Source of the DNA: Algoriphagus sp.
GTDB taxonomy: Bacteria > Bacteroidota > Bacteroidia > Cytophagales > Cyclobacteriaceae
Length of the DNA: 44,498 bases
Direction of reading: 5' to 3'
NCBI GenBank assembly: GCA_044236565.1
Contig: JBIIGH010000001.1
Location: 1 to 44,498, forward strand
In this document: piece by piece, positions 3,359 to 43,366 of the stretch
Numbering within the stretch: position 1 is the stretch's first letter
Layout: every line of letters begins with the position of its first letter
The notes under the pieces: model-generated
Seen by the model: only the letters and a program-made list of their open reading frames with translations
What the model was told of the DNA's origin: nothing
Database searches by the model: none
Position numbers and translations under genes: made by a program

Positions 3359-3539
3359 ATTGTACGAAGTACTAAGTACAATGTACCAAGACGATTAGAA
3401 CCAAGAACCAAGAGATTAGACTTACTATTCTACTACTAGGAATTTCTTGCTAATCAGGAGCAGCATTCGTCTTGGCTCTTGTGTCTCGGCTCTTACTTCT
3501 AAAGGATCTTTGTACTTCGTACTTGGTACCTTGTACAAT
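3359..3539. repeat. Imperfect inverted repeat with heptamer-periodic arms (GTACNAA units plus AAGAACC/GGCTCTT units)
   Basis: Left ATTGTACGAAGTACTAAGTACAATGTACCAAG versus reverse complement of right ATTGTACAAGGTACCAAGTACGAAGTACAAA; inner arms AGAACCAAGAACCAAGAG / GTCTTGGCTCTTGTGTCTCGGCTCTT. Confidence 0.8.
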
Positions 3540-10573: not shown

Positions 10574-11290
10574 ATGACAAAGCTAAGTGTAAATATCAAC
10601 AAGATTGCCACCATCCGAAATGCCCGAGGAGCCAATAATCCCAATGTGGTCAAAGTGGCCTTGGACTGCGAACGGTTTGGAGCACAGGGGATCACCGTGC
10701 ATCCGCGCCCAGATGAGCGGCATATTCGCTACCAAGATGTGTTGGACTTGGCCCAGGTAGTGCGTACCGAATTCAATATTGAAGGCTATCCTGATGGACG
10801 ATTTATGGAGCTTATCCGAACCGTGAAGCCTGCTCAAGCCACCTTAGTTCCTGATCCTCCCACAGCCATTACTTCCAATACCGGTTGGGATACGATTCAG
10901 CATCAAGCAATGCTTCGGGATATCGTCGCGGAGCTTCATGAGATCGGTACCCGAGTGTCTATTTTTATCAATCCAGAGGTCAAGTATTTTGAGCCAGCCA
11001 AGGATACTGGCACAGACCGGGTAGAGTTGTATACCGAACCTTATGCATCGAGTTATCCTTTAGACCGGGAAAAAGCCGTGCAGCCCTATGTGGAGGTGGC
11101 CAAGCTAGCTACCGAACTCGGTTTGGGACTCAATGCGGGCCATGACTTGGACTTGCACAACCTAGCCTACCTCAAGCAGCACATCCCGCAGCTGGAAGAG
11201 GTGTCGATAGGTCATGCGCTGATCTGTGATGCGCTCTATTACGGTTTGGAAAACACGATACAGTTGTATCGCAGGCAGCTTGAACTGTAA
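10574..11290 (+). CDS. pdxJ: Pyridoxine 5'-phosphate synthase
   Basis: [46 protein letters not shown]; start revised to ATG at 10574. Confidence 0.97.
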
Positions 11291-11297
11291 TTTTTTT

Positions 11298-11650
11298 GTC
11301 AACGGTCGACGGTCAACAGTCCACAGTAAATTGTGCTTTGATGATGGAAAACGTATTAAAAAATTGATTCTAACTTCCATCCCACAGCGAATCGGCTGTC
11401 GACAGTGGACTGTCAACCGTTGACCAAAATGTCCACAGTAAATTGTGCTTTGATTATAAAAAACGTATTAAAAAATTGATTCTAACATCCGTTTCAAAAC
11501 GAACTGGCTGTCGACAGTGGACCGTCAACCGTTGACCAAATATCAACAGCAAATTGTGCTTTGATTATAAAAAACGTATTAAAGGATTGATTCTAACTTC
11601 CATCCCACAGCGAATCGGCTGTCGACAGTGGACTGTCAACCGTTGACCAA
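11298..11650. repeat. Three tandem ~111-112 bp repeat units with heptamer-periodic inverted arms
   Basis: Units start at about 11319, 11431 and 11542; each ends GGCTGTCGACAGTGGAC(T/C)GTCAACCGTTGACC; the leading arm GTCAACGGTCGACGGTCAACAGTCCACAG is its inverse. Confidence 0.92.
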
Positions 11651-11703
11651 AAATTAAAAACAAATTCAATTTTTTTATTTTTTAACATTTTTACATCTAG
11701 GAT

Positions 11704-12054
11704 ATGGCATTCAAATTTGAAGAGTTAAGGGTATGGGAAATGGCTATAAGCCTTTCGGCTGAAGTAAATGTTTTGATTAAAACTTTTCCTGTGGAGGAGC
11801 GATTTGTACTCAGCTCCCAATTTCAACGGGCTGCAGATTCGGTAGCATTAAATATTGCAGAAGGCTCTACTGGTCAGTCAACTGCAGAATTCAAGAAATT
11901 TCTCGGATATTCGATTCGATCTGGAATCGAAGTTATCAGTTGTTTGTATTTGGGAAAGAAAAGAGGAATTATCTACGAGGAAGATTTTTCAAAACTTTAC
12001 TCCACTTATGAATCGTTAATTGTCAAAATTCAGGCGCTTAAAAACTCTTTTTGA
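11704..12054 (+). CDS. Four helix bundle protein (23S rRNA IVP / bAvd-like family)
   Basis: FEELRVWE.A...FP.EERFVLSSQFQRAADSVALNIAEGS...EF.KFL.YS.RS..EV signature; 116 aa. Confidence 0.93.
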   Translation: MAFKFEELRVWEMAISLSAEVNVLIKTFPVEERFVLSSQFQRAADSVALNIAEGSTGQSTAEFKKFLGYSIRSGIEVISCLYLGKKRGIIYEEDFSKLYSTYESLIVKIQALKNSF

Positions 12055-12077
12055 CTCGTGGTTTGATTACATAACCA

Positions 12078-12342
12078 ATCTGCTGTGGACAGTGAACTTT
12101 TAACTTTTCAAAATGTCAACGGTTAACGGTCGACGGACCACAGCCAATTGTATTTCAGCGAGCAAAAAGGTATTAAAATTTGGATTGCAAACTCCATTCC
12201 TAAACGAACTGGCTGTCGACAGAGGACTTTGGACCGCTGACCAAAAAATTGTAATTAACTTATGAATAAAGTAGTATTATTTTGATTCTAAATTTGTTTC
12301 CACCACGAATCTGCTGTCGTCTGTCGACTGTGGACCGTTGAC
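12078..12342. repeat. Diverged copies of the same unit downstream of the four-helix-bundle gene
   Basis: Partial arm CTGTGGACAGTGAAC at about 12083; full two-armed unit 12115-12243; unit ending CTGTCGACTGTGGACCGTTGAC at 12342; core motifs AATTGT, GTATTA and GATT..AA shared with the upstream units. Confidence 0.85.
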
Positions 12343-12349
12343 CACATGT

Positions 12350-13108
12350 ATGCAACTAAACTTCAAAAAATCTGGCACCGGCCCACCGCTCGTTATCCTC
12401 CATGGACTATTTGGTTCCTTGGATAACTGGTTTTCCATTGCCAAGGAACTCGTTGAGCACTATACCTTGTATCTTGTAGATCAGCGCAACCATGGGGATT
12501 CCCCCCATTCCAACGACTGGAATTATGGGGTCATGGTGGAGGATTTACGGGAATTGCTGGATGCCGAGGGCCTGGATTCTGTGTACTTGATGGGGCACTC
12601 CATGGGCGGAAAGACCGTGATGAATTTTGCAGTGACTTATCCTGAGCGCGTACGTAAACTCATCGTGGGAGACATTGCTCCCCGACACTACCCGATTCAT
12701 CACCAACGGATCTTGGAAGGACTCAATGCGCTGAACCTGCAAACATTGCAATCCCGAAAAGAAGCGGATGATCAGCTGGCTGCCTTCATCCCAGAACTGG
12801 GAATCCGCCAATTTTTATTGAAAAGTTTGGGTAGGGATGCGAACGGATTCGCATGGAAAATCAATCTCCCTGTAATCACCGAGCAGATTGAAGAGGTGGG
12901 CAAAGCCTTGGAAGAAGGAACCATTTTTGATGGCCCTACTTTATTTTTGGGAGGAGCGAATTCTTCCTACATACAGCAGCAAGATCTGCCTGACATCAAC
13001 ACCCATTTTCCAAATTCTGAATGGGTCTCCATCCCAGATGCTGGACATTGGCTCCATGCGGAACAGCCCGAGGCGGTGGTAAAAGCCATTCGCCGATTTT
13101 TGGGTTAA
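12350..13108 (+). CDS. Alpha/beta fold hydrolase (YbfF-like esterase)
   Basis: LHGLFGSLDNW, DQRNHGDS, GHSMGGK, DIAP, AGHWLHAE; ATG at 12350. Confidence 0.92.
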   Translation: MQLNFKKSGTGPPLVILHGLFGSLDNWFSIAKELVEHYTLYLVDQRNHGDSPHSNDWNYGVMVEDLRELLDAEGLDSVYLMGHSMGGKTVMNFAVTYPERVRKLIVGDIAPRHYPIHHQRILEGLNALNLQTLQSRKEADDQLAAFIPELGIRQFLLKSLGRDANGFAWKINLPVITEQIEEVGKALEEGTIFDGPTLFLGGANSSYIQQQDLPDINTHFPNSEWVSIPDAGHWLHAEQPEAVVKAIRRFLG

Positions 13109-13238: not shown

Positions 13239-13292
13239 AGGTTGGAAGTTCAAATAGGACGGCTGTCGACCGTGGACCGTTAGCCGTCGACC
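13239..13292 (+). repeat. Partial copy of the dispersed repeat (AGGTT.GA.GTTCAA plus heptamer arm)
   Basis: AGGTTGGAAGTTCAAATAGGACGGCTGTCGACCGTGGACCGTTAGCCGTCGACC; lacks the GATTATCCGC hairpin. Confidence 0.7.
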
Positions 13293-27415: not shown

Positions 27416-27454
27416 GATGGTTAAACGCCTTTTTAAAAGTAACTATTCAATTTA

Positions 27455-27556
27455 AAGCTTGAAGTTCAATTAAATGAGCTGTGGACCGTGGACTGTGAGC
27501 GATTATCCGCAGTGATTACCAGGTAGGTTGTGCCACTGATCGAATTGCGGATAATC
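27455..27556 (+). repeat. Dispersed repeat copy A (heptamer arm plus GATTATCCGCA-N34-TGCGGATAATC hairpin)
   Basis: GAAGTTCAATTAAATGAGCTGTGGACCGTGGACTGTGAGC, then stem 27501-27511/27546-27556. Confidence 0.85.
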
Positions 27557-27561
27557 CTTTT

Positions 27562-33595: not shown

Positions 33596-33721
33596 CAGGG
33601 AGGAAAATTTGAAACAAAATTAGTACCTTTTTTTTAACCTTATGCGAAAGATTCACATCCCCAGCCTTTCCGGTTTTTTCTATTGTGGATATCCATTTTA
33701 TTGCCAATAACCAGAGAAAAT

Positions 33722-33837
33722 AAGGTTAGAGGTTCAAGAAGGTGAGCTGTGGACCGTGGACCGTCAGCTGTTAACGATTATCCGCATTTATATATAGGAG
33801 AACTGAGCTACTGGTAGGATTGCGGATAATCATATTA
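33722..33837 (+). repeat. Dispersed repeat copy B
   Basis: AAGGTTAGAGGTTCAAGAAGGTGAGCTGTGGACCGTGGACCGTCAGC; stem 33776-33786/33821-33831. Confidence 0.88.
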
Positions 33838-34896: not shown

Positions 34897-35027
34897 TATG
34901 ATTATCCGCAATCATGCCAGTAGCTCTCCTCGCCTATTTAAAACTGCGGATAATCGTTGACAGACCATAGGCCACGGCCTACAGGCTTTCAACGGTCCAC
35001 AGATCACCTAATTGACCCTCAAACCTT
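34895..35027 (-). repeat. Dispersed repeat copy C (inverted; similarity to copy D extends to about 35075)
   Basis: Stem 34900-34910/34945-34955; reverse complement reads AAGGTTTGAGGGTCAATTAGGTGATCTGTGGACCGTTGA...GATTATCCGCAG...TGCGGATAATCATATT. Confidence 0.88.
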
Positions 35028-35079
35028 TTTTCCTCTCTTTAGTGGTGAAAAAGCGGATAATAAGAATATTTAAAATACT

Positions 35080-43148: not shown

Positions 43149-43250
43149 GTAGCCTTGGTTTAGACTAAATGTAACTAGGAAAATGAGAAAATGGAATCTA
43201 GATTTTATTTAATCTGATTTCCCTCTTTTTCATCATAAACTAGAGAAAAA

Positions 43251-43359
43251 AAGGTTTGAGGTTCAATTAGATGAGCTGTGGACCGTTGACTGTGGTCTAT
43301 CAACGATTATCCGCCGTTTTAATAGGCGAGCTAGGCAAATGGCATGATTGCGGATAATT
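43251..43359 (+). repeat. Dispersed repeat copy D (similarity to copy C extends left to about 43200)
   Basis: AAGGTTTGAGGTTCAATTAGATGAGCTGTGGACCGTTGACTGTGGTC...GATTATCCGC...GCGGATAAT. Confidence 0.88.
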
Positions 43360-43366
43360 AAATAAT

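Follow-up and report, generated by a model that had tools for sequence, protein, structure and literature searches.

The window analysed here, a 44,498-nucleotide stretch of a genome whose nearest cultured named relatives are Algoriphagus species, contains a four-helix-bundle gene and a set of heptameric repeats between two host genes, pdxJ (10574..11290; PF03740, TIGR00559) and an alpha/beta hydrolase gene (12350..13108; PF00561), with all features of the block described on the forward strand. A left arm of four heptamers, L1 (11298..11326), begins 7 nt past the pdxJ stop, which ends at 11290, and the terminal right arm (12315-12342) ends 7 nt 5′ of the hydrolase ATG at 12350. These borders were re-measured and agree with the initial annotation, which had also assigned four GTNNAC-N heptamers to each end; this holds for the left arm, whereas the right arm comprises three exact heptamers and one variant. 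Downstream of the start of L1 come the three tandem units already recognized (11320..11652), each composed of an 8-nt left-arm remnant, a ~70-nt spacer and a right arm (11397-11424, 11509-11536 and 11620-11647), spaced at 112 and 111 nt with 86-87% matches. A 51-nt A+T-rich leader (11653..11703) then precedes the gene, which encodes 116 aa (11704..12054). The gene-proximal left arm is degenerate in relatives and is gone from the leader of this copy. What had been described as about three more diverged units 3′ of the gene consists of a partial unit (12055..12104), which ends in a decayed right arm at about 12084-12104 that is probably the gene's original right arm, and two diverged units (12137..12347) that match the first unit at 72% and 69% and contain two right arms, a degenerate one at about 12213-12242 and the terminal one. 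A second left arm, L2 (12115..12142), had been overlooked; its position inside the block makes each side its own hairpin set.

The stretch was detected in 18 lake-water DNA runs, which contained 88-94% of the words sampled from it. Contigs of four of these runs extend from 11623 through the gene, showing 0-1 differences, so the assembly is sound at this locus; the tandem part of the block fragments into short contigs, as repeats do. Joints in DNA-run contigs with less than 30 nt on a side were disregarded as artefacts of the repeats. A promoter and terminator scan gave hits at chance level only. An Rfam identity was considered and rejected, the one match scoring 21 bits against a threshold of 140.

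As anticipated, the gene encodes a four-helix-bundle protein, with matches to PF05635 (E 1.8e-28; 99.3 bits against a cut-off of 33.8) and TIGR02436 (E 4.3e-26; 91.3 bits against 24). Its structure model (pLDDT 95) superimposes on the pentamer Xcc0516 (2GSC) with TM 0.92, Z 19.8 and rmsd 1.1 over 110 aligned residues, on BT_0352 with Z 17.4, and on Avd of DGRs (4DWL, 8UB7) with Z 14.1-14.3 and rmsd 1.7-2.2 (104 aligned residues at Z 14.1 and rmsd 1.7), although identity to Avd is only 4-5% in the structural alignment and there is no sequence match. The proposed kinship to pentameric Avd-type proteins is thus supported by a predicted fold, and the protein is likely a homopentamer, to judge from 2GSC and 2RLD, with five chains each. 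It is under purifying selection (dN/dS 0.02-0.09 in the four pairs with unsaturated dS). PF05635 genes occur in 58 of 61 genomes of the genus, in up to 17 copies each, and to our knowledge the family has no known function outside DGRs, despite solved structures. A search of viral contigs with the query used found no relative. One paralog in this genome (G000), at C200:555-869, has an in-frame stop and lies between what we take to be a DinB/PolIV-like gene and an HTH regulator.

Comparison of the pdxJ-hydrolase junction across the 29 relatives with the best pdxJ matches showed the gene in 9 of them. Arms flank it in all 9, and the arrangement named in the initial annotation as contrary to its proposal, the gene at this site without repeats, was seen in none. 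Seven of the nine have a minimal form, with one four-heptamer arm per side and a gap of 484-508 nt (~490-510 nt); the other two have extra units. The minimal cassette is also present in several named, cultured Algoriphagus species. Among relatives in which the gene is absent, G016 has a single gene-less hairpin whose sequence is that of the ~111-nt unit, G034 and G010 have a left arm only, and about 14 have, as read by eye, runs of another heptamer just 5′ of the hydrolase start; the sister genome G006 likewise has no copy at this junction. In other genera of the family, pdxJ lies upstream at 18 of 30 hydrolase loci, none of the 18 has the gene, and at 7 of them the two coding sequences abut, within 3 nt or overlapping. 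An insertion into a tight operon junction, as first proposed, is therefore borne out. The empty site sought for it exists in other genera but not as a clean empty allele among the 29 relatives within the genus, and the target duplication also sought was not found for lengths of 2-11 nt; IS-type ends were likewise not found at the cassette borders.

With the gene in 9 of 29 relatives and in none of the 18 junctions of other genera, the cassette is best read as a single early entry in the genus that was then often lost or replaced. Although 7 of its 14 branches lack support, the gene tree is broadly congruent with that of the hosts, so most of the history at this site is vertical. Between G000 and both G020 and G070, dS is 0.37-0.43 for the gene and 1.44-1.49 for pdxJ. 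At fourfold sites, G000 and G020 differ at 12 of 44 positions in the gene versus 52 of 103 in pdxJ, and the contrast has p values of 0.011 and 0.006 for G020 and G070, respectively. These values, together with the absence of the gene from the sister genome G006, are consistent with lateral exchange of the cassette between related lineages at an occupied site; in other genome pairs the divergence of the gene relative to pdxJ varies both ways.

Both arms of this type are present in 32 of 92 distinct near relatives, at ten host sites that include the pccB-M42 peptidase junction, recX-crtI in both orientations and one Thermodesulfobacteriota record. In 24 of 28 cases the left arm begins at a distance of -2 to 8 nt from the preceding stop codon, and in 10 it includes the final base of that stop; in 16 of 21, a gap of 6-15 nt separates the end of the right arm from the following start codon. 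Between the convergent recX-like and crtI-like genes, the cassette has one orientation in L129 and L099 and the other in L138 and L140, and where this was measured (L129, L138, L140) the final base of the stop codon is also part of the arm; inversion through the arms or two insertions could have produced this arrangement. The pccB-M42 peptidase junction holds two PF05635 clades with different words (L098 and L144-L147 versus L083-L086, L100 and L208), suggesting replacement at an occupied site. A related cassette in L152, L198 and L201 (L164 by its flank) lies between two ORFs resembling halves of one split gene, presumably methionine synthase, and the coding frames of both flanking ORFs extend into the arms in L198 and L201.

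The co-occurrence of PF05635 genes with periodic inverted arms, which the initial annotation had suggested checking, was surveyed at 144 loci retained from 170 after duplicates and loci with short flanks were dropped, a Bacteroidota-heavy set in which kin are not independent. Of these loci, 56% have period-7 runs on the upstream side and 60% on the downstream side, as compared with 1.8% and 4.1% for 1602 control genes of this genome; at the same loci, periods 4-6 and 9-11 give 0-1% and period 8 gives 7%. The two flanks are inverted, with 6.6 shared 6-mers versus 1.7±0.2 after shuffling and 2.2 in direct orientation. Across the 144 loci the word tracks the protein clade, as simple linkage would lead one to expect, and some clades with similar proteins have different words. 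As judged by eye, all four PF05635 genes in this genome are flanked on either side by a word particular to the gene, weakly so for the broken C200 copy. At the class level, word and clade co-occur in 5 of 15 versus 14 of 185 genomes (p 0.007), a weak result obtained with loose patterns and uncorrected for kinship. That gene and arms form a unit is supported by their constant association at the pdxJ site, the recurrence of the same clade at ten sites and the PF05635-specific period-7 flanks; the earlier proposal that protein and repeats constitute one system thus stands for the gene and its arms and is not supported for the ~111-nt array as an RNA array of the protein.

The reading that best accommodates the insertion, the clade-linked word, the purifying selection, the ten host sites and the variable number of units is that of an old cassette on which hairpins have piled up, with a protein that probably acts as a pentamer reading its own 7-base word, more likely as DNA, and with rare movement. 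We give this reading as a whole about an even chance. According to it, a PF05635 gene between inverted arms of four 7-nt repeats inserted at the pdxJ-hydrolase junction, and gene-less hairpin copies of the same arms have accumulated on the cassette in this lineage. The gene would be expressed by read-through from the host operon, and its product would assemble into a pentamer and bind its own arms, more probably as DNA. Because the copy number of units varies, we infer that units are gained and lost by slippage or by unequal recombination between arms. The cassette may be exchanged occasionally between related lineages at the same site, and probably moves rarely, with the help of some enzyme or by recombination.

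Several observations weigh against this reading. In the solved complex of a homolog, Avd, the ligand is an RNA stem-loop and not DNA (bioRxiv 2023.10.23.563531). The cassette has neither the duplication nor the IS-type ends of a transposed element, nor a clean empty allele in the genus, and this genome, which is 76% complete, yielded neither an RT (PF00078) nor an IS1595 transposase. The number of arms shows no correspondence with the orthologue: the strict arm pattern, which ranges from 0 to 116 per genome across 61 genomes (maximum 8 in 199 genomes outside the genus), is absent from G067 and G068, where the orthologue is present, and occurs 57 times in G006, which has none at this site. The gene-proximal arms have decayed here while the protein is intact, and the tracking of clade by word is expected from linkage, with different words beside similar proteins in some clades. 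The history of the site is, in addition, mostly vertical.

The foremost alternative is that the cassette works as RNA. The closest described element is the S23p IVS of 23S rRNA, known from Coxiella burnetii and Leptospira as an ORF between ~28-nt inverted ends with variable-copy heptamers upstream of the ORF; the Coxiella element forms a 28-bp stem with heptamer repeats and is cleaved by RNase III (PMC4990558). It shares with the cassette a PF05635 ORF, inverted ends of ~28 nt, heptamers in variable copy and the absence of a transposase. The cassette differs in lying between protein-coding genes, pdxJ and the hydrolase gene, and not in 23S rRNA, which excludes it from the group, and in its extra hairpin units; moreover, its protein is under purifying selection, whereas the IVS protein is decaying. 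By analogy, the arms might pair in the operon transcript as an imperfect ~28-bp stem from which RNase III releases the gene-bearing piece, and the pentamer might bind this stem through flipped-out bases, as in Avd, whose RNA stem-loop is bound by all five protomers (bioRxiv 2023.10.23.563531). Any left arm is able to pair with any right arm, minimal cassettes are predicted to fold with about 21-26 expected arm-arm pairs that enclose the gene in 8 of 13 gene-bearing loci, and at the sites compared the cassette has the same direction as the host gene upstream of it. In the fold predicted for the present block, however, the terminal arms share 0.8 expected base pairs and pairing is local (L1 with R1/R3, L2 with R6), so that the gene is not enclosed.

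Sequence variation in the arms argues in the same direction. Among 31 oriented cassettes there is no covariation between arms (20.26 Watson-Crick pairs versus 20.27 in shuffled pairings, p 0.55; energy, p 0.055), and only 7 of the 31 form their stronger duplex on the sense strand. Mismatches on the mRNA strand, taken over all word families, are more often A-C than G-U (31 versus 13 clusters at 80% identity, p 0.01; 22 versus 10 at 70% identity, p 0.05), whereas 121 terminator-like hairpins scored alike show the opposite bias, with 41 G-U and 8 A-C. The absence of covariation and the A-C excess indicate that selection keeps the word and its period and not a tight mRNA stem; cleavage of an imperfect stem by RNase III, or a protein that requires flipped-out bases as Avd does, would still be compatible with these results. 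RNA-run contigs, derived from related strains and possibly from DNA carry-over, bridge pdxJ to the first arm and the gene to the hydrolase; no pdxJ-hydrolase excision joint was present among them, as assembled contigs that carry no end, strand or level information. The IVS-like stem around the whole block that was originally envisaged is not borne out, and an IVS-like RNA element of any form seems to us possible but clearly the less probable option. The wobble result moves the focus from RNase III mapping to a comparison of DNA and RNA binding, and the locus offers a direct test, with one protein, one degenerate 28-nt word, and cognate and non-cognate words in one genome.

Arms are by no means confined to the pdxJ block, which holds 6 of the 157 found in the 2.38 Mb genome (104 with four heptamers, 24 with five and 29 with three). 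They are not chance occurrences, since two block-shuffled genomes gave 0 and 0 and the first ~111-nt unit folds with a z of -6.3. None of 100 arm clusters lies inside a called gene, and 41 of 88 classifiable clusters lie between convergent genes according to our own gene calls. Half of the dispersed arms are accounted for by a MITE of the IS1595 type: 76 of the 157 lie in this ~150/169-nt element, which has 51 full copies, 13-bp ends common to PF12762 elements of the genus, and an 8-bp target duplication (5.2 of 8 matches versus 3.1±0.2 in shuffled controls, with the peak at 8). Both MITE-like ends are found at 5 of 20 PF12762 loci, 2 of them with a perfect 8-bp duplication, and MITE insertions are polymorphic, with precise empty sites in relatives. 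The dispersed carrier therefore has the ends, duplication and empty sites of an IS1595-type MITE, unlike the pdxJ cassette, which has neither 13-bp ends nor a duplication; the best match between the inner flank of the MITE and cassette leaders has an E of 0.35. Four MITE copies lie in the window, at about 27416-27559, 33684-33834, 34897-35065 and 43213-43362; they contain a second, internal occurrence of the end sequence together with a single heptamer arm, and their empty sites are found in G007, G016, G020 or G070.

The positions of the dispersed arms bear on a second alternative, in which the protein has been domesticated as a post-transcriptional regulator that binds heptamer runs on mRNA near stops and starts, much as TRAP does, tuning the translation or decay of an arm-marked regulon. 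Such a role would fit the long vertical retention and the purifying selection, as well as the start of 33 of 129 arms within 15 nt after a stop codon, versus 7.2±2.7 by chance, a distance at which REPs are reported, on the basis of earlier work, to stall ribosomes (PMC12306157). It is at odds with the scarcity of arms close to start codons (1 of 110 ends within 15 nt) and with the even strand distribution, 14 versus 14, of solo arms located between co-directional genes. Nor would a regulon be expected to have nearly half its arms riding in a MITE with polymorphic empty sites, to turn over its word families at arm-bearing sites among close relatives, or to do without the gene at the pdxJ-hydrolase junction in 20 of 29 relatives, and we regard regulation of this kind as unlikely. 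Such turnover is seen at two dispersed-arm sites, where relatives show other heptamer families against the same stops. At C268:1263-1388 and C274:2108-2233 of G000 (L236-L239, L242-L244), whole spacers between convergent genes are swapped among close relatives, and arms of different families abut the same stop codons. Within the window, a solo arm at 13264-13291 lies 4 nt past the stop of a convergent amidohydrolase gene; it is present in several relatives, and the whole spacer is absent in G008.

It is still less likely that there is no functional link at all, with heptamer runs arising as insertion by-products and the protein serving an unrelated cellular role. Arms are abundant without the gene, their copy number varies freely, and the proximal arms decay beside an intact protein, all of which such a dissociation would explain. 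It would leave unexplained the strict period of 7, the inverted layout and the four-heptamer length, which are kept across saturated synonymous divergence and at ten sites, and the presence of each PF05635 gene's own word on both its sides, to the extent that reading by eye and the weak C200 case allow.

The least probable of the alternatives, and one we consider highly doubtful, is that the ~111-nt units constitute an RNA array (CRISPR-like or guide-like) dedicated to the protein, which would process and bind it: the units are regular, 86-94% identical, flank the gene and, when full, all fold strongly, but their spacers are homologous across units and not variable, they are missing in 7 of the 9 gene-bearing relatives and number 1-3 per side in close relatives, like arrays occur elsewhere without the gene (five units in G070 where G000 has one), and no Rfam family comes near threshold. 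The initial suggestion of an RNA array for the pentamer is accordingly set aside. Gene-less hairpins and tandem arrays occur at C97, C109, C117, C189 and other places, and the spacer of the block has matches (E below 1e-5) at three places that lack a gene. The array is secondary, a product of ordinary repeat growth that is not specific to the cassette.

In REP/BIME and REPIN-RAYT systems, inverted repeats occur by the hundred between genes and form hairpin doublets and tandem mosaics, and the same repeats flank a gene present in single copy. The dispersed arms described here correspond to REP/BIME sequences in being numerous, intergenic and inverted and in forming hairpin pairs and tandem mosaics, and they are similarly enriched between convergent genes and just after stops, the proximity of REPs to stop codons having been reported (PMC12306157). 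The flanked gene, in contrast, encodes a four-helix bundle and not a Y1/HUH transposase, the three Y1_Tnp (PF01797) genes of the genome lie elsewhere with other repeats or none, and the repeat itself is a degenerate period-7 run. Two of these Y1_Tnp genes (L005 and L006, at C140 and C29) have REP-like palindromes unlike the heptamer arms. The protein shares its fold with Avd, itself a nucleic-acid-binding pentamer, but the cassette has no RT, template or variable repeat nearby, and the units differ from a CRISPR array in having no unique spacers. TAACTGA heptamer repeats of Beggiatoaceae, Cyanobacteria and Bacteroidetes are intergenic, patchily distributed and located near starts and stops, with no known mechanism (PMC4679880). 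They resemble the arms as period-7 intergenic runs near start or stop codons, with the difference that the word is another and that the run described here is tied to a gene family; the main text of that report contains neither 'helix bundle' nor 'intervening' (PMC4679880). Our literature search, which covered mostly open-access articles, found no description of heptamer-armed PF05635 cassettes outside rRNA.

The locus links the PF05635 family with period-7 intergenic repeats. Extending the preferred reading of a word-reading cassette, we tentatively speculate, at well below even odds, that PF05635 proteins could each recognise a 7-base word particular to their clade and could be the active component of a class of transposase-free mobile cassettes. 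Such cassettes would insert at stop codons, spread by homing between relatives into sites already occupied, and leave behind the gene-less arms and hairpins that account for many unexplained bacterial heptamer repeats; rRNA IVSs would be a special case, a cassette that inserted in rRNA.

Other repeat families accompany the one described. At 3362-3536 in the window lie arms of a second heptamer family, which has dozens of intergenic runs in G000; its cognate gene clade precedes lpdA in relatives and was not found in the incomplete G000. In a 10-kb contig of another genome (L116, G023:C52), mosaic tandem units of ~115 nt made of several heptamer families occupy every gap between genes, which include AAA-ATPase-like and ABC-permease-like ones. 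Finally, at C147:252-626 of G000 (L067), a PF13366 gene (GxxExxY, PD-(D/E)XK-like) is followed by its own tandem ~100-nt repeats, constituting a second family in this genome in which a small gene is associated with repeats.
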